Shown: positions 3,114 through 61,926 of the stretch, piece by piece
Layout: each line of letters opens with the position of its first letter
Position numbering within the stretch: position 1 is the first letter of the stretch
Source of the DNA: an uncultured Methanosarcinales archaeon
Lineage (GTDB): Archaea > Nanobdellota > Nanobdellia > Woesearchaeales > JAGLXL01
Assembly: GCA_964364045.1 (NCBI GenBank)
Contig: CAYIKL010000001.1
Coordinates: forward strand, 24,633-88,632
Direction: 5' to 3'
Length of the DNA: 64,000 nt
Notes under the pieces: generated by a model
The model's input: only the letters and a program-made list of their open reading frames with translations
The model's database searches: none
What the model was told of the DNA's origin: nothing
Position numbers and translations under genes: made by a program

Positions 3114-3815
3114 TTACGGTCTTTTCCACGCAATCTCATAATAAGTCACATCATTCTCTTCGTCAACAACCCCCATCAGCAGCCGTTTCTTCGTGCTGTG
3201 CGCAACCCTGTTTTTCGCGCTAAAATCATGCCATGTAAGCATTTCACCTTCATGTACCGGATACACAACCCATCGTGCATGATCCTCGCCCGGCTTCACT
3301 CCGCGATCATACACCCTGAAATCAGCGCCAAACTTGAGCGCAGTCTTCACGATATAGCCTCTGTTTCTTAAATCTTTGAAAACAACATATTTAACCCATA
3401 CTTTAGGTTCAATTTTGGAAGCTTTCTTCACAAAAGCGTCAAAATCCACTTTCTTCCCTTTTGCATCCTTGACTAAAAGCTTTCCTGCTTCCATTAAATA
3501 CAAGCCTTCAAGCAGCGAGAGCTGCACTCTGCCATTGTCAAGGAGAGAGCCAAACCTGCTTTGATTGAAGAGCTCCCGTGCTTCACCACTGTTTTCGGTG
3601 AGCACCCGCTCTCTTCCCAAGACAGCTTTGACTTTCTTTTTTACCACCTTTCCAACACAAATGAGGAGATTTAATAAGCTTTTCTCTTGCCTCCCATTTC
3701 TCTTCGAAAACTTTATATACTCCCATTCACCACCATCACCAAGAGGGTCAATAATGGTTGAAGACAAAGAAAAGAAATTCTCACGCGATTTGATTGGTAA
3801 GACTGTTGTCAGCAA
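3114..3815 (-). CDS. endA: tRNA-splicing endonuclease EndA
   Basis: The C-terminal catalytic domain reads ...RGYIVKTALKFGADFRVYDRG...HARWVVYPVHE..., matching the conserved GxKFGxDFxxY block, His and Lys of archaeal EndA. The N-terminal boundary is uncertain because it overlaps the convergent PRC gene. Confidence 0.75.
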   Translation of the reverse strand: MLTTVLPIKSRENFFSLSSTIIDPLGDGGEWEYIKFSKRNGRQEKSLLNLLICVGKVVKKKVKAVLGRERVLTENSGEARELFNQSRFGSLLDNGRVQLSLLEGLYLMEAGKLLVKDAKGKKVDFDAFVKKASKIEPKVWVKYVVFKDLRNRGYIVKTALKFGADFRVYDRGVKPGEDHARWVVYPVHEGEMLTWHDFSAKNRVAHSTKKRLLMGVVDEENDVTYYEIAWKRP

Positions 3816-16846: not shown

Positions 16847-16871
16847 AGCGTTTTCTTCCTGTGCATTTTAT

Positions 16872-16959
16872 GGGCCGGTAGCTCAGCCTGGTAGAGCACA
16901 ACGTTCGCATGATTATCCGAGAGACGTTGGGGCCTCGGGTTCAAATCCCGACCGGTCCA
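16872..16959 (+). tRNA. tRNA-Ala(CGC) with a 14-nt intron at the canonical 37/38 site
   Basis: Hand fold: acceptor GGGCCGG/CCGGTCC with G3:U70, D-arm GCTC-AGCCTGGTA-GAGC, anticodon stem CAACG, loop TTCGCAT, then the intron gattatccgagaga, then 3' stem CGTTG. The T-arm is TCGGG-TTCAAAT-CCCGA and the discriminator is A. No CCA is encoded. Confidence 0.8.
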
Positions 16960-16990
16960 TTTTTAGAAAAATTTTGAATAATACCACCAA

Positions 16991-17706: not shown

Positions 17707-18864
17707 TTAAGCGGCTGGTATATAAAGTTTCCTGCTTTCTGCTTCAGTCAGAATCTCAAGCCTGTTTGCCGTCGGCAGCACTTCAACCATTTTCTTCAGC
17801 GAATCTTTCGCATACGCAACTTTTGCCTGTGTCTCTCCAAACGGCTTGCCTGCATTCTCGTATAGATCCATAAATGCCTTTCTCCCACAACGCCCCTCCA
17901 AAAATCCTAACGTTTTTCTGATCTTTGATAGGGGAACAAGAACTCCATCTTCCGGTCTTCCAAGAATCGCATGAACAGCAGCATATATGGCATCATCAGA
18001 CACCTGCGTGCTATTCGTCTGTCTTTTAGGGGTCATAAGCCGGTTAAGTTTTTTAAGCGCTTCTCCTTCGATTTGTCTTACTCGTTCCCGTGAAAGATCT
18101 ATTTTATCTCCTATTTCCTGGAGCGTCATAGGAGAATAACCATTCAAGCCATATCTCATTTGAAGTATGTCAGCATCGCGTTCGCTCAACCATTCCAGCA
18201 TCTTGTTCATGAGTTCTACTTCATTCCCATATTCCAATGCGTCACCCGGACGCTCTGTATATGAACTCTCCAACGCATCCACAAGCTGCCCCTTATCTCC
18301 AACATGTGTTTCAAGTGACACTGTTGTCCCAAGAGTTAATGCCTTATAAAAAAGCTCATACCTTTCTTCAGGAATGTCCAACTTTGCAGCAAGTTCATGC
18401 ATCGTCGGCTCTCTGCCATTTTCAGAAACCATCTCTCTCGCGACTCTTTTCCAGTGCGCGATTTTCGGTACCAAATATGATGGAACACGTACCGTCTTTA
18501 CCTGATCTACCAGTGCACGTTTGATACTTTGGTGTATCCACCATGTTGCATAGGTTGAGAATCTGCACCCTTCCTCCAAATCAAATTTGCCCGTTGCTTT
18601 CATCAATCCAAGATTCCCTTCTTCAATAAGATCAAGAAGTCCCAACCCTCTGCTGACATACTTTTTTGCAATGCTGACCACAAGACGCAGATTTGAGTTA
18701 ATCAGCGCTTCTCGCGCTTCTTCATCCCCTTCATGTACACGTTCCGCAAGATTCCTTTCTTCTTCTCGTGAAAGAAGCTCAAATCTGTTCATTTCTATAA
18801 AATATTGTTCCAGAACATCTCGTTCATCCATATGTGTGCTAGAATATACACGATTAATAAGCAT
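17707..18864 (-). CDS. Bacterial-type sigma-70 family factor homolog (regions 1.2-2-3-4) with a novel ~100 aa C-terminal extension
   Basis: The sequence [74 protein letters not shown] aligns almost residue-for-residue with region 2.1-2.4 of RpoD ([52 protein letters not shown]...DQARTIRIP). [13 protein letters not shown] corresponds to region 3. ILQMRYGL...[28 protein letters not shown] is region 4.2. Confidence 0.85.
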
Positions 18865-32934: not shown

Positions 32935-33394
32935 GTGAATAAGCTGAGAAATATTCCTCAGCCCTGTGCGCCGTTTGACTCGGGCTTAATACTGTGTTTG
33001 TTTCAGGAGGAGGTTTATAAATGTTTGTGTATCCTATTATTATCGTGTTTCCTCGTAATCTTGGTTGAACGTTCCACTTGTTCGCGCTAAAGAGATACTC
33101 TTTTGCATACAATAAGCACCAGTGAGTTCGCCACCCTAAAACATTGAAGCAAATAATGCAATAAGCCCTATCCTGAGCATAAAAATCAAAAAAGAATAGG
33201 TTTTGTCTTTTGGGTGCGAATTCAAAATTATTTCACTGATTAACTCCTTCACGAATTCCCCTGAGTGTTCTTATTTTATAAATTTTAAAGAGAGTACTAA
33301 AGTATTTTTATTATAAAGATACCATTTCCCCAGAAAACCATCCCTAAAAAAGAAAAAGGGCATCCAAAATGGCAATTATTTTCAATTCCATCGC

Positions 33395-49610: not shown

Positions 49611-51725
49611 ATGCTGCAAATGAAGCTTGCTCTTCTTTCCCTCATCCTTATTCTTGTTCCGATGGCTGATGGCCTTGTCATCAACGAACTAATGTATAAC
49701 CCTGCGCAATGTGGTGATTCAGATTGCGAGTGGATTGAATTATATAACAGCAACAACCAAACAATCAACTTGACGGGCTGGACACTCGACGGCAGCTCTT
49801 TAAACGGTATTGAGATTGGCGCACACTCGTACATCATCTTAGCAACCGAGCTGATTGACGGCGATGACGCTGATAACGAAAGCTTTGAAGCGCACTGGGG
49901 GAACAACGACGGCGTTTTTAACGAGTCCGATGGAAATTTCAGCGCCTACCACATTTCCTTCTCTCTCAAAAATTCCAACGACGTTATTCTTCTGACTAAT
50001 GGCTCGCATGGTGATATACTTGAATACAGCTCGAGCTGGGGTGCCAATGGCAACAATTACACGCTTGAAAGAATAAATGCAACAGCAGATAACGATAAAG
50101 ACAACTGGGGCACTAGTCTCATCATAGGCGGCACGCCGGGACGACAAAACAGCTTGCATGGAACGAGCAATACGTACAACATTCACATCAGCGAATTTCT
50201 TCCAAATCCTCATGGCGATGATAACGCACCCATGCCTCAGGGTGAATGGCTCGAGCTCTCCAACGCTGGTGAAGCCACCGACCTGAAATGGGCTTTTTTC
50301 AAAGACAAAGAAGGGCACACTCTGTACATCACCGACACAACCGGCGGCACAACCCTCTCCCTAAATGGGTTCCTGACCGTTTATGTCAACGGACTTTCTG
50401 GTTTTCTCAACAATGGAGTAGAAGAGATTTTTTTTTATTCAAAAGAAGGAAAACTTATTGACAGCGTGAGTTATGCTATAGCCGACGAAGGCAGCTCCTG
50501 GGCAAAAGTTGATGGAAACTGGCAGCAGACAATGCCGACGCCAGGAAAAGAAAACGCAGATTTCAGTGGTGTAAAGAATTCAAAATTTACGATTGACGCT
50601 GTTCAGGATTTAGGCTCAAACAAGGCCGCAGAGTTTGGACAGACCATACGTGTCAATGTTATTGGCTATAAGGGCGATGATACCAAAAGCGTCCTGCGGA
50701 TGTTTGTCTCCGACGGAAATGACAAGATCAGTAAAGAGTCAAAGATCACCATTTCAACCAAGTATACACCATTTGAGCTTGCGGTTCCCATCCAGCTTGT
50801 CCCAAATTGTAATGGGAATTTTGAAGATAAAGAATACATGATTCACATCGGCTGGGCAAGCGAAGACACATTTTTCGACACGCATCCTGTAAAAGTCAGC
50901 GGAATGACTCAGAGTTTATGTGAGAAAGTAGGTAGTGCAAAATCCACCTCGAAAGGCACTTTGAGTTATGATTTGCTGCTCGCCGGCGAGACCGTTCACT
51001 CGGGAGAGCAATTCACGGTCACTGCTGATGTTCGTGGCGATGAAACCAAACACGACATTGCTGTCTGGGCGTATGTCTACCGCGGCTCAAAGACCTATTC
51101 GGGCGAGCAGGAAGCAAACAAGGTAAAATTCCTGCTCCAGCCGCATGAATCAAAAAAAGTTTACCTTCCAATAAGTTTAGGCAACGAAATCGATGACGGT
51201 ACATACAAGCTCAAGCTGAAGCTGAACAAGGATAACCAAAAGACCGACAAGGAGATTACCCGAGACATCACCATCATCAAAGGCCATGGAGAGATTCTGC
51301 GATTTGAGTATGAAACAGATCAAATTACGGTGGAGGCAAAGAATGCACACGCAGTTGACCTAGTCTCCTTTTTTGGCGAGCAGCGGAAGACTATCAACAA
51401 CACAGCGCTGTTCAATGTCTCGCTCATCGAGGGAAAAAACATATTCTTTGCGAAACTTGTTGATGAACAAGAAGACATCACTGATGTCGCACAGCTTAAT
51501 TTGCTGAAAGAAGGCAGCACCATCCGCGAAGTAGCCAATGTAGAACTCAGCGATGAAGGGGAAGAGCTGCTGCGGCAGAAGCTGCGTTCTTTGCGTGATG
51601 TCCAGCAGAAGCGCGGAAGGGTGGTGTATGAGTCCAGCTCAATGAAAGTCCGTGAGTTTCTGCCATGGATGTTTATTGGTGCGCTGCTGCTTCTTATTGT
51701 TGCGCTGGTTTTGAAGAGGGTATAG
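49611..51725 (+). CDS. Surface protein with two lamin-tail (LTD) domains and a C-terminal TM anchor
   Basis: Signal peptide; LTD signature VINELMYNP...DCEWIELYN...INLTGWTL, repeated as IHISEFLPNPHGDD...GEWLELSN. The C-terminal anchor is FLPWMFIGALLLLIVALVLKRV. Confidence 0.65.
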   Translation: MLQMKLALLSLILILVPMADGLVINELMYNPAQCGDSDCEWIELYNSNNQTINLTGWTLDGSSLNGIEIGAHSYIILATELIDGDDADNESFEAHWGNNDGVFNESDGNFSAYHISFSLKNSNDVILLTNGSHGDILEYSSSWGANGNNYTLERINATADNDKDNWGTSLIIGGTPGRQNSLHGTSNTYNIHISEFLPNPHGDDNAPMPQGEWLELSNAGEATDLKWAFFKDKEGHTLYITDTTGGTTLSLNGFLTVYVNGLSGFLNNGVEEIFFYSKEGKLIDSVSYAIADEGSSWAKVDGNWQQTMPTPGKENADFSGVKNSKFTIDAVQDLGSNKAAEFGQTIRVNVIGYKGDDTKSVLRMFVSDGNDKISKESKITISTKYTPFELAVPIQLVPNCNGNFEDKEYMIHIGWASEDTFFDTHPVKVSGMTQSLCEKVGSAKSTSKGTLSYDLLLAGETVHSGEQFTVTADVRGDETKHDIAVWAYVYRGSKTYSGEQEANKVKFLLQPHESKKVYLPISLGNEIDDGTYKLKLKLNKDNQKTDKEITRDITIIKGHGEILRFEYETDQITVEAKNAHAVDLVSFFGEQRKTINNTALFNVSLIEGKNIFFAKLVDEQEDITDVAQLNLLKEGSTIREVANVELSDEGEELLRQKLRSLRDVQQKRGRVVYESSSMKVREFLPWMFIGALLLLIVALVLKRV

Positions 51726-53160: not shown

Positions 53161-55596
53161 ATGGAACAAAACCCGAGGATAATCCCTCGCATCATTGAGC
53201 AGGAAATGAAGCAGGCATATGTAGACTATGCCATGTCTGTCATTGTCGGCAGAGCATTACCAGATGCGAGAGATGGCCTCAAGCCTGTCCATCGAAGAAT
53301 TCTCTTTGCCATGAATGAGATGGGCATGACCCATGACAAGCCCTTCAAAAAGTGCGCTCGTATTGTGGGAGAAGTGTTGGGTAAATTTCACCCCCACGGC
53401 GACACCGCGGTATATGAAACACTAGTAAGAATGGCACAGGATTTTAGTATGCGCCATGTGCTGATTCAAGGACAGGGCAATTTTGGCAGCGTTGATGGCG
53501 ATGCAGCCGCAGCGATGCGATATACAGAGGCAAGATTGCACGAGTTTGCAGAGTACATGCTTGCCGACATTGACAAAGAAACCGTTGATTTCAAGCCCAA
53601 TTTCGATGAGAGCTTGAATGAGCCTGTAGTACTGCCCAGCAAAATACCAAACTTACTCATCAATGGAAGTACGGGCATTGCTGTCGGCATGGCCACCAAT
53701 ATTCCCCCACACAATCTTCGTGAAGTCTGTGACGCAGTAACTCTAGTTATCAACAATCCCGAAGTTGATGCAAATGAGCTCATCGAAGTTGTGCCTGGCC
53801 CGGACTTTCCCACCGGTGCGACGATTGTGGGCAAAAAAGGGATTGAATATGCCTATAAGACAGGAAAAGGAAAAGTAACCATACGCTCCGTTGCTGAAGT
53901 GCAGGAGGGCAGAATTATAGTCACCGAGATTCCATATATGGTGAACAAGTCACAGATGATTGAGGAGATCGCAGACAGCGTGCGCGCAAAGCGTATTGAG
54001 GGGATAAGGAACATCCGCGATGAAAGTGACAGGGACGGCATAAGAATTGTGTTTGAGCTGAAAAGCGGCGCAGACGGACAAGTCGTGCTCAATCAATTGT
54101 ATCAATATTCTCGATTAAAGACAACCTTTGGCATTATCTTTCTTGCATTGGTCGATAATCAGCCAAAACTATTGACATTAAAAGATGCGCTGCAGGAATT
54201 TGTCAATCACCGGCGTGAAGTGGTGCGCAGAAGAACCCAGTTTGATTTAACAACAGCGCAGGAGCGTGCCCATGTGCTTGAAGGGATGATTGTCGCGCTC
54301 AACAATGTCGATGATGTTGTCGCTGGCATCAGGCGCAGCAGGACAGTAGATGATGCACGCCAGTTCTTGCTTGCAACCTATCAATTGACTGAGCTGCAGG
54401 CAAAAGCAATCCTCGAGATGCGCTTGCAGAAGTTAGCCAGCTTAGAGCAGCAGCAGATTCGTGACGAGCACAAAGGGCTTCTTGAGACCATTTCTGAGCT
54501 GCAGAGTATTCTTGCATCTGAGCAGAAAATTTTAGAGGTCATCAAAAAAGAGATACAGGAAATAAAAGAAAAGTTTGGCGATGAGAGGAAGACAAAGATT
54601 GTTGAGGGCGAGGAGGATGATGTTGAGATAGAAGAGCTGATCGAGGAAAAAGATATGGTTGTCACGGTAACCCACTCGGGCTATATCAAACGCATTCCTC
54701 TGGACACCTATCGGCAGCAGCGTCGGGGTGGGCGAGGTGTTACCGCAGCCGGCACGAAAGAAGAAGACTGGGTTGAAGATTTGTTTATTGCAAGCACGCA
54801 TAACTATATCCTGTTCTTCACCAATGAAGGGCAGTTGCACTGGCTCAAGGTGTATGAAGTTCCTGAAGGCGGCAGGACAGCAAAAGGCCGCCCACTCGTC
54901 AATATGCTTTCCCTGTTGCCCGGAGAGAAGGTGAGCGCGTTTGTTCCAGTGCGCGATTTTGAGACGGGAAAATACATCTTCATGGCGACAAAAAACGGAA
55001 CCGTGAAAAAAACGCCGCTTGAATACTTCAGCAGGCCGCGGCGGGGTGGCATCAGAGCTATAACACTAGCCATTGGCGACGAGCTGATTGGCGTGAAGCG
55101 CACCAATGGCAGCAAGCAGATTATGCTGGCAACACGCTATGGCCGGGCAGTGCGGTTTGATGAGAACGATGTGCGCGCGATGGGCAGGACAGCTGGTGGT
55201 GTGAGAGGCATCCGGTTGCGGAAAGATGATGCCGTTGTCGGAATGGAAGTTGCCGATGAAAGTAAAGCATTGCTCACCGTAACCAATAAAGGTTATGGCA
55301 AGCGCACTGCAGTAAATGAATATCGGCTGATCTCGCGCGGTGGAAAAGGAGTGACCAACATTAATCTGACTGAGAAGAATGGTCTGGTTGTTGGCGTGAA
55401 AGCGGTGAAAGACGAGGATGAAGTGATGTTCATTTCTAAGAATGGCATTGCGATACGGACACCGATAAGCGGCATTTCTGTTATCGGTCGTGCAACCCAA
55501 GGTGTTCGTGTGATGCGCTTGGAAGAAGGCGATGAGCTCGTTGCGGTTGAGACGATTGTTTCAGAGGAGTTAAGCACTGTGAATGGCAACGCATAA
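53161..55596 (+). CDS. gyrA: DNA gyrase subunit A
   Basis: AMSVIVGRALPDARDGLKPVHRRILFAMNE...HPHGDTAVYETLVRMAQDFSMR includes the active-site Tyr region, and C-terminal beta-pinwheel repeats follow. No gyrB is adjacent. Confidence 0.9.
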   Translation: MEQNPRIIPRIIEQEMKQAYVDYAMSVIVGRALPDARDGLKPVHRRILFAMNEMGMTHDKPFKKCARIVGEVLGKFHPHGDTAVYETLVRMAQDFSMRHVLIQGQGNFGSVDGDAAAAMRYTEARLHEFAEYMLADIDKETVDFKPNFDESLNEPVVLPSKIPNLLINGSTGIAVGMATNIPPHNLREVCDAVTLVINNPEVDANELIEVVPGPDFPTGATIVGKKGIEYAYKTGKGKVTIRSVAEVQEGRIIVTEIPYMVNKSQMIEEIADSVRAKRIEGIRNIRDESDRDGIRIVFELKSGADGQVVLNQLYQYSRLKTTFGIIFLALVDNQPKLLTLKDALQEFVNHRREVVRRRTQFDLTTAQERAHVLEGMIVALNNVDDVVAGIRRSRTVDDARQFLLATYQLTELQAKAILEMRLQKLASLEQQQIRDEHKGLLETISELQSILASEQKILEVIKKEIQEIKEKFGDERKTKIVEGEEDDVEIEELIEEKDMVVTVTHSGYIKRIPLDTYRQQRRGGRGVTAAGTKEEDWVEDLFIASTHNYILFFTNEGQLHWLKVYEVPEGGRTAKGRPLVNMLSLLPGEKVSAFVPVRDFETGKYIFMATKNGTVKKTPLEYFSRPRRGGIRAITLAIGDELIGVKRTNGSKQIMLATRYGRAVRFDENDVRAMGRTAGGVRGIRLRKDDAVVGMEVADESKALLTVTNKGYGKRTAVNEYRLISRGGKGVTNINLTEKNGLVVGVKAVKDEDEVMFISKNGIAIRTPISGISVIGRATQGVRVMRLEEGDELVAVETIVSEELSTVNGNA

Positions 55597-57261: not shown

Positions 57262-57278
57262 ACAAAACCTTTATAAAC
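57262..57278 (+). promoter_or_regulatory. BRE/TATA element AAAACCTTTATAAACTC about 25 nt upstream of the RNase P RNA 5' end
   Basis: The spacing matches archaeal -26 TATA placement. Confidence 0.5.
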
Positions 57279-57297: not shown

Positions 57298-57623
57298 GAG
57301 GATGGTGCGGGACTACGGCGTAAGCCGAGGAAAGTCCGCCCACTCGATGCACGCGATGCCTTCAACGGCAGAACGTGCGGGAAAGAGCCACTTTCGGAAG
57401 AAAGCTTGGGAAACCGAGGTCAATGGATCAGAAACGACACGGCCTGGTCAGAGGATGACGCGCGCGAAGTTTCCGGCGACGGAAATGAGCTAACCCGCTG
57501 ACGTTTTTCCAGGAAACGATGAAACGGCGAACACTGGCTTGTGCAAGCCAATATGGCGCTCAGTAGAATGTCCCGAAACGCTGTTCGAAAGAAGCGTAAC
57601 AGAAGGCGGCTTACACCATCCTC
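57298..57623 (+). ncRNA. rnpB: RNase P RNA (archaeal type A-like)
   Basis: A P4 5' strand CGAGGAAAGTCCGCC, the CR-IV/V-like ACAGAAGGCGGCTTAC and GTGCGGGAAAGAGCCAC are present. The terminal P1 pairing is GAGGATGGTG...CACCATCCTC. A TATA box (TTTATAAA, 57270-57277) lies about 25 nt upstream. Confidence 0.8.
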
Positions 57624-57809: not shown

Positions 57810-58136
57810 ATGTTTCCAGGAATGAATCCACGCGCAATGAAGCAGGCCATGAAGAAGCTCGGCATGCAGCAAGTTGACATAGAAGCTTCTGAAGTGATTA
57901 TAAAGACCGCAGACAAAGAAATCATCTTCTCAAACCCACAGGTGAGCAAGATCAACATGATGGGCCAGGAAACATGGCAGATAACCGGTGAAGCGCATGA
58001 ACGAACAAAAGAGATGTTCACTGCAGATGATGTAAAGACCGTTATGGAACAGGCGAATGTTACCGAAGAAAGGGCAAAAGAGGCATTGGAAGAAACAAAT
58101 GGGGATTTAGCGGAAGCAATTTTAAAGTTGAAATGA
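57810..58136 (+). CDS. nac: Nascent polypeptide-associated complex protein (NAC alpha, UBA)
   Basis: NPRAMKQAMKKLGMQQVDIEASEVIIKT..., with a C-terminal UBA (EERAKEALEETNGDLAEAI). Confidence 0.8.
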   Translation: MFPGMNPRAMKQAMKKLGMQQVDIEASEVIIKTADKEIIFSNPQVSKINMMGQETWQITGEAHERTKEMFTADDVKTVMEQANVTEERAKEALEETNGDLAEAILKLK

Positions 58137-58507
58137 GAATACTTCTTGTTGATGATAGTAGAGCTGATCGTTTTCGTATAAGGAAACTATTGGAGAAATT
58201 GGATGATTCCGACGTTGAAGAAGCCTGCGATGGAACAGAAGCAGTAACAAAAGCTTCTGGTCTGCCTCATCTTGTTCTTATGGATACATATATGCCCGGT
58301 ATGAAAGGCTACGAAGCCTGCGCGCAAATACGAAGCAAACCATACGGCAAATTCATGGCCATCATAGGAATGTCTTCAATGCCTCGTGCAAAAGAATGGA
58401 AAGCTGCCGGAGCAGATGATTTTATCGATAAGACTAATCTTCTTGAGGGAGATGGTGCAGAATTTGAGGGAAGAATTATGGCGGCAGTAGGTAAATACAA
58501 AAAGTAG
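58133..58507 (+). CDS. Stand-alone response-regulator receiver (CheY-like)
   Basis: MRILLVDDS...LVLMDTYMPGMKGYE, with the conserved D and K of REC domains. Confidence 0.75.
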   Translation: MRILLVDDSRADRFRIRKLLEKLDDSDVEEACDGTEAVTKASGLPHLVLMDTYMPGMKGYEACAQIRSKPYGKFMAIIGMSSMPRAKEWKAAGADDFIDKTNLLEGDGAEFEGRIMAAVGKYKK

Positions 58508-58544: not shown

Positions 58545-59051
58545 ATGGAAAGATTTCAGGAAGCGCGGCAGAAAGCGCTTGCAAATCTCAAGGCAGCCGA
58601 CCACATCCTGAACGTCACGTATCCATTGCTCAAAGACACGCGATTGCTTCTTGGCGTTTTAGATAGCATTTTTCTCTCCGTAACAAATTCGATGTCAGCG
58701 ATCTTACGGTATGAGCTATTTTTCAAGGAAATCCCGCCATTCCACGACAACTTCGAGAGCAAACTCACCGTGTTCCAGCAATGCGCTCAAAAATACAGTA
58801 TCAACACAGAGTACATCAAGCTGATGCGTGAGATAAAAGATATCATCGTCCTTCACCGGAAAAGCAAGATCGAGTTCAGAAAACAAGACCGATTCATCAT
58901 CTGCAGTGATGATTACGCCGTCACCACCGTCACCGCAAACCAGCTGAAAGATTACATAAAAAAAGCAAAAGAGCTTTTCATGCTTATGGATAACATTGTC
59001 GAACATGAACGAATACTTAGAGGAAGCGAAGGAAGAATTGAAGCGCGTTGA
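58545..59051 (+). CDS. Hypothetical helical protein, paralog A
   Basis: The N-terminal motif ALANLKAADHILNVTYPLLKDTRLL is shared with paralog B (LKRVDHIIYVSLKYTRTVDII). Confidence 0.4.
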   Translation: MERFQEARQKALANLKAADHILNVTYPLLKDTRLLLGVLDSIFLSVTNSMSAILRYELFFKEIPPFHDNFESKLTVFQQCAQKYSINTEYIKLMREIKDIIVLHRKSKIEFRKQDRFIICSDDYAVTTVTANQLKDYIKKAKELFMLMDNIVEHERILRGSEGRIEAR

Positions 59052-59475
59052 CCACATCATTTATGTGAGCCTGAAATACACGCGAACGGTTGACATAATC
59101 AGGAACGCATTGCACAGAATAATTAGTGCATTTGATTACACCATTGAAGGGATTTTATGGCACGATAAAGAAACAAAGAGAATAGCTCACGTTCCAAAGA
59201 CGCCCAGAGATAAGATCGACACGCTGGCAAAGCTGTACAAGGAAGACAAGCTTCTTAATCATTTCATTAAGTTTTATGTTTTTCTCCGCGAGCTGATCAA
59301 AGCGCCATACGCCAGGCGCGAGGAATATCGCCGCCATGTTACCATGATATCACAATTAAAGAACCAGACTGCAGAGATTGATATTGATGTGTTAGAGGAT
59401 AATTTTGACGAGATAGCCAAAAGCTTTCTCGAATATGCCGAAGTGCTTACTGGAGAGAGGAAGCCTGATGAGTAA
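58996..59475 (+). CDS. Hypothetical helical protein, paralog B
   Basis: Tandem, overlapping paralog of the preceding gene. Confidence 0.4.
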   Translation: MSNMNEYLEEAKEELKRVDHIIYVSLKYTRTVDIIRNALHRIISAFDYTIEGILWHDKETKRIAHVPKTPRDKIDTLAKLYKEDKLLNHFIKFYVFLRELIKAPYARREEYRRHVTMISQLKNQTAEIDIDVLEDNFDEIAKSFLEYAEVLTGERKPDE

Positions 59476-59923
59476 GATCCCTCCGGAAAAATGGTTAGAT
59501 AACGTGTTAAGGCGTGCAGAACGCTCAGTAAAACAATCACCGTTCCATCACAAAGTAGTATTCTGGCTGAGCATTATTGTCGTCGTCAAAGCAAATCTTG
59601 CTCTCTCTGCAGTGCTCGTTCCTTTTTTAGCCGCACTCAACCATCCATTTTTCGATTTTACCATCCTGCTTACTGCACTTCTGGTGGGTTTTTCGTATAA
59701 CTATCTGTTATCAAACGTCGCTCATCTGGAAAAAGGGCACTATTTTCTTGCTTTAGTGATCGTCCCGCTCATTGCCATCGCCAATGTCTTTCTGATAGGC
59801 AGTGTTGTTGAACAGTTCTTCCGCCCGCGTGCAGATTTGTGGCTTATCGCTGCATTATATGGGATAGTGTTTGTCTTGCCCTACGGAATTTCCTCAAGAA
59901 GATTTATAAAGAATTGGGCGTAA
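59435..59923 (+). CDS. Hypothetical membrane protein
   Basis: Four TM helices. Confidence 0.4.
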   Translation: MPKCLLERGSLMSKIPPEKWLDNVLRRAERSVKQSPFHHKVVFWLSIIVVVKANLALSAVLVPFLAALNHPFFDFTILLTALLVGFSYNYLLSNVAHLEKGHYFLALVIVPLIAIANVFLIGSVVEQFFRPRADLWLIAALYGIVFVLPYGISSRRFIKNWA

Positions 59924-60078: not shown

Positions 60079-60450
60079 ATGACTCATGCACTGGTTGTTG
60101 ATGATAATCGCAAGAGCGCAAGGCTCGTAGGTGAAATACTTAGTTATCATGGTCTTGAAGTGAGAACGGCACACTCCGTGCCGGAAGCGCTCGCGCAGGC
60201 GCAACATGAGCCTCCGAATCTTGTTGTAACTGATCTTCATATAGGGAGCGGCTGTGGCTACGAGTTAACTTCTGCTATAACAACACAATATCCGGGCGTT
60301 CCGGTCGTGATGATGAGTGGATGTGCTGCCCCGGACTGGCCGTCGCGGGCACGACAGAGCGGCGCATCTGAAACTTTGCAGAAGCCTTTTGAGATGAATG
60401 AACTCTTATCAGCTGTAGAAAGAGCTATGGCCGAAAAAAAATACTCATGA
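60079..60450 (+). CDS. Stand-alone response-regulator receiver
   Basis: ALVVDDNRKSARLVGEILSYHGLEVRTAHS...LVVTDLHIGSGCGYE. The start is moved downstream of the tRNA. Confidence 0.7.
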   Translation: MTHALVVDDNRKSARLVGEILSYHGLEVRTAHSVPEALAQAQHEPPNLVVTDLHIGSGCGYELTSAITTQYPGVPVVMMSGCAAPDWPSRARQSGASETLQKPFEMNELLSAVERAMAEKKYS

Positions 60451-60853: not shown

Positions 60854-61765
60854 ATGATAAAGACGCGCAGGTTGTTTTTGGCAGTGTGCATGTTCTTTTT
60901 AATTGGAGTTGGAGCTGTCTCTGCTGAGAGCGAAACAGTTGGCGTGGGGTTGTACCTGATCAATATAGGCAATTACGATATTTCAAAAGGCACATATACA
61001 GCAGATTTCTACATTTATTTTAATTGCACGCAAAACTGTTCAGCATCCACTAATTTTGAATTTATAAACGGCCGGGCGGATTCCATTGATCCAAATGACA
61101 TCCTTGCCAATGAGCACTATTATCGTGTCTATGCAAGTCTCCTGAGCCCCGTTGATTTGAGAAAATTTCCATTTGACATCCAAAAATTTAACATTCTGAT
61201 TGAGGATAAACGGCGTACGACTGACGAACTCGTGTATGTTCCTCTGATTGATAAAAGCAGTGTTGACGAAGGGATTACAGCAACGGGATGGAAAGTTGTT
61301 AATTGGAGTGTAACAGCGAAAGACCATTATTATGCCGTCTACGATGAAACCTATTCCCAATACGTCTTTACGATGACGATGTCCCGCACAATCCTCAGTT
61401 CAGTCCTTAAAACCTTCCTTCCAGTGGTCTTTATTATTCTTATCGTCCTGTTTAGCTATATTCTCGGCCTTGATCAGCTGCCGAATCAGCTGACGCTGAT
61501 TGGTTCAGGCTTAGTTGCAGCTGTCATGTTCCACGTGTCCATTTCAAATGATTTGCCGCCACTGGGTTATCTGACATTTGCAGATAAATTCATGATACTT
61601 ACATATTTCGTCCTTCTCTCGACGATGATTATCAGCATCATTCTGCTCGTCCTTCTTGAGCATAAGAAGCGAAAGCTCGCATCCCGCATCCATAAGATAA
61701 CTGAACTGGCAGTATGGATTATTGTGCCTGCCATTTATTATATTCTATTCAATTTCTTTTTGTAG
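60854..61765 (+). CDS. Pentameric ligand-gated ion channel (pLGIC/Cys-loop receptor) homolog
   Basis: A signal peptide and a ~190 aa beta-rich ectodomain carry the loop signature LRKFPFDIQKFNILIED (the FPFD motif of pLGICs). Four TM segments follow, with an M2-like pore helix (LIGSGLVAAVMFHVSISNDLPP). The length is 303 aa, as in GLIC/ELIC. Confidence 0.65.
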   Translation: MIKTRRLFLAVCMFFLIGVGAVSAESETVGVGLYLINIGNYDISKGTYTADFYIYFNCTQNCSASTNFEFINGRADSIDPNDILANEHYYRVYASLLSPVDLRKFPFDIQKFNILIEDKRRTTDELVYVPLIDKSSVDEGITATGWKVVNWSVTAKDHYYAVYDETYSQYVFTMTMSRTILSSVLKTFLPVVFIILIVLFSYILGLDQLPNQLTLIGSGLVAAVMFHVSISNDLPPLGYLTFADKFMILTYFVLLSTMIISIILLVLLEHKKRKLASRIHKITELAVWIIVPAIYYILFNFFL

Positions 61766-61807: not shown

Positions 61808-61826
61808 ATAAGAAACCTTTATAAAC
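61808..61826 (+). promoter_or_regulatory. BRE/TATA element AAGAAACCTTTATAAACAA about 100 nt upstream of rpl3, leaving a leader for the L3 operon
   Basis: Same core motif; a longer 5' UTR is typical of r-protein operons. Confidence 0.4.
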
Positions 61827-61926
61827 AACCCCCTTACCAACACGGATAAGCCTGAAAAGGAGCCTCAATGGATCCATCAATAGGCTTTTACGACAGTAAA
61901 AGCGTATTTCTTTCAGGGGAATAAAA

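Follow-up and report, generated by a model that had tools for sequence, protein, structure and literature searches.

Does a DPANN archaeon encode a channel of the Cys-loop receptor superfamily and, if so, does that channel signal through the receiver genes that lie beside it? The question is raised by one gene in a 64,000-nt stretch of an archaeal, Woesearchaeota-like contig from Hainich groundwater (hereafter the window). An earlier note had read its product as a pLGIC (pentameric ligand-gated ion channel) subunit of the GLIC/ELIC type and had proposed that two nearby stand-alone response-regulator receiver (REC) domains make it a chemosensory input. We find that the gene is a small archaeal relative of the Cys-loop receptor channels, of the GLIC/ELIC type, and that the REC genes adjoin it by coincidence. 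Overall, we put at roughly 80% the probability that it encodes one subunit of a prokaryotic-type pLGIC of a Woesearchaeota-like DPANN archaeon, acting alone from its own promoter.

A Cys-less relative of the Cys-loop receptors

The position, ATG start and length of the open reading frame (ORF) are as first described (Table 1), and protein-identical copies are present on three independently assembled contigs, all from the 0.1 µm fraction of Hainich groundwater well H51. When searched with phmmer against all PDB sequences, the protein matched GLIC variants over residues 87-296 (E 2.6e-18 to 1e-16), and a family profile of 36 sequences reached E 1e-24 to 1e-26 against GLIC. The best E-value by sequence was obtained with a GLIC-GABA-A alpha1 chimera, because its transmembrane domain aligns well. 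The AlphaFold2 model is confident (pLDDT 90, pTM 0.78) and consists of an extracellular beta-sandwich (strands at 27-42, 47-58, 73-83, 87-97, 109-117, 126-130, 146-160 and 165-178) followed by a four-helix transmembrane bundle, which bears out the four membrane helices, including an M2-like pore helix, that had been predicted from the sequence alone. In a Foldseek search of the PDB, GLIC matched the entire length of the model (template-modelling (TM) score 0.82, E 1e-21, ~308 aligned columns), and GABA-A and glycine receptors matched it at a TM score of ~0.77; 1107 matches were returned at E<=0.001, and all 50 of the 50 matches listed are pLGIC chains.

The residues that mark the superfamily are also in place. 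The seven most conserved ones, which Jaiteh et al. list in their Table 1 (PMC4795631), are all kept (F105, P106, D108, W146, R178, P190 and P235) and are invariant or nearly so among 120 homologs. These positions were read from a MAFFT alignment of the 120 homologs plus GLIC, whose sequence is corroborated by the PDB-match segments and reproduces I233 as 9', H235 as 11' and A237 as 13'. The sequence KFPFDIQKF (residues 104-112), which the earlier note had singled out in the beta-rich ectodomain, indeed holds the Pro-loop: F105-P106-F107-D108 aligns to GLIC Y119-P120-F121-D122, with Pro and Asp in 120/120 homologs and Phe in 119/120. R178, just before M1, aligns to GLIC R192 (Arg in 111/120, Lys in 9/120) and would be the salt-bridge partner of the Pro-loop Asp, while W146, P190 and P235 align to GLIC W160, P204 and P247 and are present in all 120. 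Altogether, the family alignment contains 48 invariant columns and the window copy keeps every one. No Cys-loop disulfide pair is found, the loop L96-LSPVDLRKFPFDIQKF-N113 being devoid of cysteine, and the protein is therefore a Cys-less, prokaryotic-type Pro-loop receptor.

Upstream of the ectodomain, the N-terminus MIKTRRLFLAVCMFFLIGVGAVSA, followed by ESE, has the basic n-region, hydrophobic core (Kyte-Doolittle peak 2.19) and AxA-like site of a Sec signal peptide, as had been claimed, and cleavage is predicted to fall before ESE; across the family alignment this region is variable in sequence, yet always basic and then hydrophobic. The ectodomain lacks ~24 residues relative to that of GLIC, in three gaps (18, 3 and 3) that lie between beta2 and beta6, and the stretch that joins the end of beta2 to loop A counts 25 residues in the window copy vs 47 in GLIC. 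Beta3 lies in the corresponding segment of GLIC; in the model no strand is seen between residues 58 and 73 except for a two-residue bridge. The only conserved cysteines, C58 and C62, stand just after beta2 and do not vary within the close DPANN family. In length, the M3-M4 linker equals that of GLIC; it carries a net charge of +5 and holds no intracellular domain, and this positive-inside charge agrees with an N-out, C-out topology.

How would such a protein work? The chain would be exported through Sec and its signal peptide probably removed, leaving a mature chain of ~279 residues with the compact beta-sandwich ectodomain first and the four membrane helices after it. By homology, five copies would assemble round a central, M2-lined pore; an extracellular small molecule would bind at the subunit interfaces, and its signal would reach M2 and open the pore, likely by way of the FPFD Pro-loop, R178 and the M2-M3 loop (P235). 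Transcription would start from a strong promoter of the gene's own, the neighbouring receivers forming no part of the system.

Several observations weigh against this model. Pentamer formation and conduction are read across from homologs, and the fold model is of a single chain. The loss of near-universal basic residues at M2 0' and -4' could alter or impair conduction, and 9' is Val where Leu is usual. With the beta2-loop A deletion, a part of the canonical loop-A region is lost, and the ligand site may therefore differ from those known. Finally, the Pfam check put forward in the earlier note gave a borderline outcome: the window copy matches Neur_chan_LBD at 19.9 bits, below the gathering score of 26 (E 5.5e-4), and does not match Neur_chan_memb, but it is the weakest-scoring member of its family, and the relatives match both models at E<=0.01 (Neur_chan_LBD 36/36, Neur_chan_memb 29/36). 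In NCBIfam, the scores are likewise below cutoff for LGIC_1 (64.5 vs 500, E 1.1e-17) and for LIC (TIGR00860; 49 vs 280, E 3.6e-13). Such sub-cutoff scores show divergence relative to the models, not missing homology, and with the GLIC homology, the fold match, the signature residues and the Pfam matches of the family all in agreement, the assignment to a GLIC/ELIC-type subunit holds.

Table 1. Coordinates of the channel gene, its promoter and the parts of its product in the window, followed by the P2A-type ATPase genes found near channel homologs (coordinates of the locus named).
Feature	Coordinates	Strand	Basis or remark
pLGIC (Pro-loop receptor) subunit CDS	60854..61765	+	ATG start, 303 aa plus stop; ORF list, GLIC match, Foldseek, 3 assemblies
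BRE/TATA-like promoter element AAACCTTTATAAA	60807..60819	+	TATA box starts 42 nt before ATG
Predicted signal peptide, residues 1-24 (MIKTRR, hydrophobic core, AVSA then E)	60854..60925	+	hydropathy; N-terminal helix 3-19 of the model
Compact extracellular beta-sandwich, residues 25-178	60926..61387	+	AlphaFold2 strands, MAFFT alignment
CxxxC motif C58-T-Q-N-C62, in the turn replacing the beta2-beta3 region	61025..61039	+	invariant in close-family alignment
Pro-loop FPFD, residues 105-108, tip of beta6-beta7 loop	61166..61177	+	alignment to GLIC
M1 helix, residues 180-201, kink P190, preceded by R178	61391..61456	+	model helices, alignment
M2 pore-lining helix, residues 206-233	61469..61552	+	model helices; prime numbering transferred from GLIC by alignment
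M3 helix, residues 242-269, after M2-M3 loop with conserved P235, Y239	61577..61660	+	model, alignment
M4 helix, residues 273-302	61670..61759	+	model, alignment
P2A-type ATPase, L027	3181-5841		
P2A-type ATPase, L047	3216-5828		
P2A-type ATPase, L066	2971-5625		
P2A-type ATPase, L073	1478-4132		
P2A-type ATPase, L038	921-3596		
P2A-type ATPase, L048	7965-10544		
P2A-type ATPase, L070	1845-4037		

Pore lining and ligand site

What can the sequence say of the pore and of the stimulus that would open it? The M2 helix of the window copy carries P210 (-2'), Q212 (0'), T214 (2'), S218 (6'), V221 (9'), M225 (13'), H227 (15'), V228 (16'), S229 (17'), N232 (20') and D233 (21'); the pore-lining residues are P210, T214, S218, V221, M225, V228, S229 and N232, and H227 is invariant in the family. 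No Glu is present at -1' or -2' among the residues tabulated for the 120 homologs, and the cation filter of the GLIC or nicotinic acetylcholine receptor type is therefore absent; ion selectivity itself is not readable from sequence. Ahead of M2, the family consensus is D-P-D-K-I-T-T-R, and relative to this highly conserved stretch the intracellular pore mouth of the window copy (residues 205-233) appears rewritten: K208Q (-4'), R212Q (0') and Q233D (21') occur in the window copy alone among the 120 homologs, and D205G in this and two others (3/120). Since the three assemblies agree, these changes are real. The window copy thus has Q212 where 118/120 family members have Arg, and V221 at 9', where Val is also the residue of 105/120 members. 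Across the superfamily, a cationic residue at 0' is conserved at 79% and Leu at 9' at 75%, neither being absolute (PMC4795631), and GLIC has Asn at 0' and Ile at 9'.

Two other readings of the protein bear on these residues. The rewritten pore mouth could belong to an altered or decaying paralog in which the M1-M2 loop changes selectivity or abolishes conduction, a reading for which the three substitutions unique among 120 homologs speak, together with D205G, Pro at -2', the weakest Pfam score of the family and closest relatives that are only ~55% identical. We nevertheless hold decay or alteration to be very unlikely, because the same copy has lost none of the family's 48 invariant columns and none of the seven superfamily signatures, and keeps an intact frame, with an identical protein in three independent assemblies, and a consensus strong promoter, while a cationic 0' residue is found in only 79% of the superfamily (PMC4795631) and is replaced by Asn in GLIC itself. 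That GLIC is the closest solved relative in both sequence and fold could instead argue for a proton-gated channel, opened by extracellular acidification and not by a small-molecule ligand, and the invariant H227 (15') as well as the likewise invariant ectodomain residues H158, D42, D51 and E69 could titrate. Yet all 11 of the 11 GLIC residues probed as proton sensors are replaced or deleted in the window copy (E26>N, E35>G, E75>D/N, E82>gap, D86>A, D88>S, H127>Q, E181>Y, H235>S/A, E243>S and H277>L), and 10 of the 11 are non-titratable or deleted at the level of the family, the E75 position being Asp in 47/120. With no GLIC proton sensor conserved, proton gating of the GLIC kind is without specific support and seems to us unlikely. 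The strongly conserved aromatic and charged residues of loops B and C are better suited to a ligand pocket: G145-W146 in loop B and H158, Y160, Y163, Y167, S168 and Q169 in loop C / beta9-beta10 are invariant, which would fit a specific small-molecule site kept under selection.

Receiver genes, promoter and genomic setting

Is the channel connected to the genes around it? It lies between a tRNA-His/REC2 unit and an archaeal rpl3-rpl4-rpl23 operon, which directly follows it. This operon, an archaeal RNase P RNA and the NAC gene mark the window as archaeal. The two stand-alone receiver domains described in its vicinity are real, with Pfam Response_reg scores of 63.3 bits (REC1, 58133-58507) and 79.9 bits (REC2, 60079-60450). 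Both are canonical, the acidic pair, the phospho-acceptor Asp (D51 and D53), the Ser and the Lys all being read from the sequence, and REC2 aligns to receivers of the NtrC, CheY and Spo0F types. The statement that no histidine kinase accompanies them also stands: no HisKA or HATPase_c domain was detected in the 40 window ORFs scanned (10 at 55.5-61.8 kb and 30 larger ones elsewhere), and no histidine kinase in the annotated flanks beyond either end of the window. The kinase of the RECs, if there is one, is encoded elsewhere and is a matter separate from the channel.

To measure co-occurrence, we compared the window neighbours by phmmer with the ORFs in all six frames of 82 homolog loci (810 kb), using a cutoff of E<=1e-4 and, in a second round, of E<=1. 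Even at E<=1, no relatives of REC1, REC2, orf119 (the gene that follows the REC2 overlap described below), TM162, orf168 or orf159 were found near the channel in these loci; the sole window neighbour to recur was rpl3/rpl4, in one locus, and homolog contexts that were read individually consist of unrelated housekeeping genes. Clustering of all ORFs within 3 kb of the channel gave no conserved operon partner; it brought up antisense shadow ORFs and scattered housekeeping genes, the recurrent ones being NrdR (6 loci) and LeuRS (5 loci). Apart from housekeeping genes, one neighbour alone recurs: a P2A-type (PMR1/SERCA-like) cation ATPase, which scores below equivalog cutoffs and lies near the channel in 7/82 loci. 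In at least three of these (L027, L047 and L066) it stands immediately upstream, in the same orientation. The channels of the seven loci are only 52-79% identical, and the association therefore arose or persisted in divergent lineages. This neighbourhood is a weak hint at cation handling; the window encodes no such pump.

The channel gene is preceded by a consensus B recognition element (BRE)/TATA box. The 13-mer AAACCTTTATAAA occurs exactly at 57265 (before the RNase P RNA), 60807 (before the channel) and 61813 (before the rpl3 operon), and with one mismatch at 33014-33026 (-), beside a block of minus-strand ORFs, which makes 4 matches in the window against 0.09 expected. Among homologs, a TTTAWA box stands 25-60 nt upstream of the start codon in 46/76 loci, vs 9.7±2.7 in shuffles. 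The earlier note had spoken of a conserved promoter; the element does exist, but it is probably the genome's generic strong promoter, as judged from the genes it precedes, and not the mark of a regulon, its activity as a promoter being predicted from the motif. A BRE/TATA box of its own makes the channel gene a transcription unit separate from REC2-orf119. Downstream, the rpl3 leader (61813-61926, +) contains an upstream ORF of 18 codons at 61868-61924 and, at 61884-61903, a hairpin with a T-run, and could be a regulatory leader of the ribosomal-protein operon.

The RECs themselves are tied to other genes, REC1 to the NAC gene and REC2 to orf119, by ATGA overlaps; neither is coupled to the channel. 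In the NAC-REC1 region (57810-58507, +), the overlap at 58133-58136 suggests that the receiver is translationally coupled to a ribosome-associated chaperone gene. Orf119 is a lineage-specific orphan: a search of 5.8 billion proteins gave just two relatives, and neither Pfam nor NCBIfam gave a match. On these grounds it was dropped as a candidate REC2 effector or channel accessory. Three ORFs without family assignment separate REC1 from tRNA-His (58545-59475, +, and 59435-59923, +): orf168 and orf159, which overlap by 56 nt and have the look of weak paralogs (E = 0.003 over 114 residues), and the third, TM162, a 162-aa multi-pass membrane protein.

These data bear on two further explanations. 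By the earlier proposal, the channel would feed sensory input into a non-classical pathway that runs through the two flanking RECs, and the presence of two canonical RECs within 2.8 kb upstream, with no histidine kinase in the scanned ORFs or annotated flanks, is in keeping with this. However, a REC or a relative of orf119, TM162, orf168 or orf159 accompanies the channel in none of the 82 loci, the contexts read one by one hold unrelated housekeeping genes, the channel has its own promoter while the RECs are coupled to NAC and to the orphan orf119, and the short M3-M4 linker offers no cytoplasmic domain that could contact a receiver. This proposal did not survive the comparison, and we regard it as highly improbable. 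With the REC link coincidental, no new kind of signalling system is revealed, and nothing in the channel data implies a new mechanism. One could also suspect a bacterial contaminant or a chimeric assembly that placed a foreign gene in an archaeal genome, given that distant clade members with a compact ectodomain occur in bacterial contexts and that 2/80 fetched homolog loci carry bacterial bin labels. This is almost certainly wrong: the gene sits between tRNA-His/REC2 and the archaeal rpl3-rpl4-rpl23 operon, with an RNase P RNA of archaeal type (57298-57623, 114 bits) at a distance of 3.2 kb; it shares the exact BRE/TATA 13-mer with that RNA and that operon; GC content is even across the region; the identical arrangement was assembled independently from three samples; and 78/80 fetched homolog loci carry archaeal labels. 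The preferred reading remains that of an archaeal channel gene that operates independently of its neighbours.

A full-length, RpoD-like bacterial-type sigma-70 (17707-18864, -; regions 1.2, 2, 3 and 4; 267 bits) adjoins an EMC3/TMCO1-like insertase and SecY. Sigma-70 genes are prevalent in Woesearchaeota, where their function is unclear (Castelle et al. 2021, PMC8204110), and this trait agrees with the taxonomic labels of the channel homologs. A 90-nt tRNA at 16871-16960 (+), whose anticodon could not be assigned by ARAGORN and which Rfam confirms as a tRNA (55 bits), is probably an archaeal tRNA with an intron; the window further encodes a tRNA-splicing endonuclease (3114-3815, -). A 704-aa protein with a Lamin Tail Domain at its N-terminus and an otherwise unannotated sequence (49611-51725, +) and the DNA gyrase A subunit (53161-55596, +) are unusual or bacterial-flavoured genes for an archaeon.

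A family in DPANN archaea and its place among known channels

How far does this channel extend beyond the window? A word-indexed search returned 352 close relatives, the best 120 of which are about 290-330 aa long and 46-55% identical. Named close relatives come from Woesearchaeota, Pacearchaeota and Nanoarchaeota/Nanoarchaeia, or are listed as "archaeon", and the family is also found in Aenigmatarchaeota. Every named database copy is labelled "hypothetical protein", because the family scores below the Pfam and NCBIfam cutoffs. Where each GTDB species is represented by a single genome, a relative is encoded at 168 loci; among the 80 of these that were fetched, 78 have archaeal labels, mostly DPANN, one metagenome-assembled genome holds two copies, and nine carry the label "uncultured Methanosarcinales". 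We thus describe a well-conserved, unannotated pLGIC family that occurs widely in DPANN archaea, a group with otherwise pared-down genomes. A second 303-aa ORF downstream of the channel in one locus (L001) was rejected as a paralog (E = 2.7).

At greater distance, an exhaustive profile search of 1.84 billion representatives gave 8110 matches at E<=1e-3, of which 2976 pass E<=1e-10 and 317 pass E<=1e-30. A short beta2-loop A segment of 22-27 aa is found in nearly all of 128 full-length representatives of this wider clade. Two candidate hallmarks were rejected: only about one in three members of the wider clade has the CxxxC pair, and the compact ectodomain is not DPANN-specific, since a distant member comes from a bacterial, Planctomycete-like setting. 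Bacteria and DPANN archaea of this clade therefore have the compact ectodomain in common, and it is not an archaeal invention. That distant member (P0150, L088 4041-5087) lies beside a Planctomycete-type cytochrome, a Lon protease and a GAD-domain AspRS. Some clade members have N-terminal extensions of up to ~410 residues (P0231, 704 aa; P0260, 459 aa; P0269, 455 aa).

GLIC and ELIC are workhorses of Cys-loop receptor structural biology; to our knowledge, the native ligands and physiological roles of prokaryotic pLGICs are not known and the archaeal members have never been characterised. Archaeal pLGICs as such have been known since 2005 and 2016. The inventory of Jaiteh et al. (2016, PMC4795631) catalogues them in Methanosarcina, other Euryarchaeota and Thaumarchaeota and mentions no DPANN lineage, and no paper linking pLGICs with DPANN, Woesearchaeota, Pacearchaeota or Nanoarchaeota was found in the open-access literature searched. 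What is new here is thus the DPANN lineage, not reported in that literature. Several hundred "hypothetical proteins" can now be named; for channel biologists the family offers a compact new scaffold with a shortened ectodomain and a distinctive pore lining, and for DPANN biologists a candidate environmental or host sensor. A bolder conjecture, which is unlikely to hold, is that the channel, kept in many Woese-, Pace- and Aenigmatarchaeota of reduced genome, lets these probable episymbionts sense a host or community metabolite as a direct ion flux, with a P2A-type cation pump, whose gene adjoins that of the channel in some genomes, resetting the gradient, and that it is also a naturally minimal pLGIC (a mature chain of ~279 residues with no beta3/loop-A segment) whose ligand site is unlike that of every characterised receptor. 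If true, metabolite sensing or a minimal pLGIC with a distinct site would give prokaryotic pLGICs a physiological role. Two features could make the gene more valuable if borne out by experiment, namely its compact scaffold and its retention in reduced genomes.

How does the channel compare with known systems? The archaeal pLGICs catalogued so far (Methanosarcina, Tasneem et al. 2005; Euryarchaeota, Thaumarchaeota) are likewise Cys-less Pro-loop receptors, sparse and uncharacterised, and are thought to reflect lateral transfer and loss (PMC4795631). Compared by description with the proteins of Methanosarcina and Thaumarchaeota, the DPANN channel differs in its lineage, on which that inventory is silent. 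The anion-selective GABA-A receptor, glycine receptor and GluCl match its fold well (TM score ~0.77), but the channel lacks their Cys-loop disulfide, N-terminal helix and large M3-M4 intracellular loop, and the 0' residue is Gln in the window copy and Arg in the anion-selective Cys-loop receptors. With Pro at -2' and no acidic residue at either -1' or -2', the window copy is reminiscent of the anionic 'PAR' motif.

GLIC, the proton-gated channel of Gloeobacter violaceus (PDB 3EAM), is the best match by sequence and by fold. The two proteins are only ~20% identical and differ in the ectodomain, where the channel is shorter by the ~24 residues described above and has a CxxxC turn in place of the GLIC beta3 region, in the proton-sensor residues, which the channel lacks, and in the pore, where -2' is Pro in the window copy and Thr in the family, with no Glu, and where positions 9', 13', 15' and 11' are Val, Met, His and Ala or Ser in the channel vs Ile, Ala, Asn and His in GLIC. 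Common to both are a beta-sandwich followed by M1-M4, the absence of Cys-loop cysteines and of an intracellular domain, an M3-M4 linker of equal length, and the same set of landmarks, namely the Pro-loop, the pre-M1 Arg, the M1 Pro, the M2-M3 Pro and the loop-B TGW.

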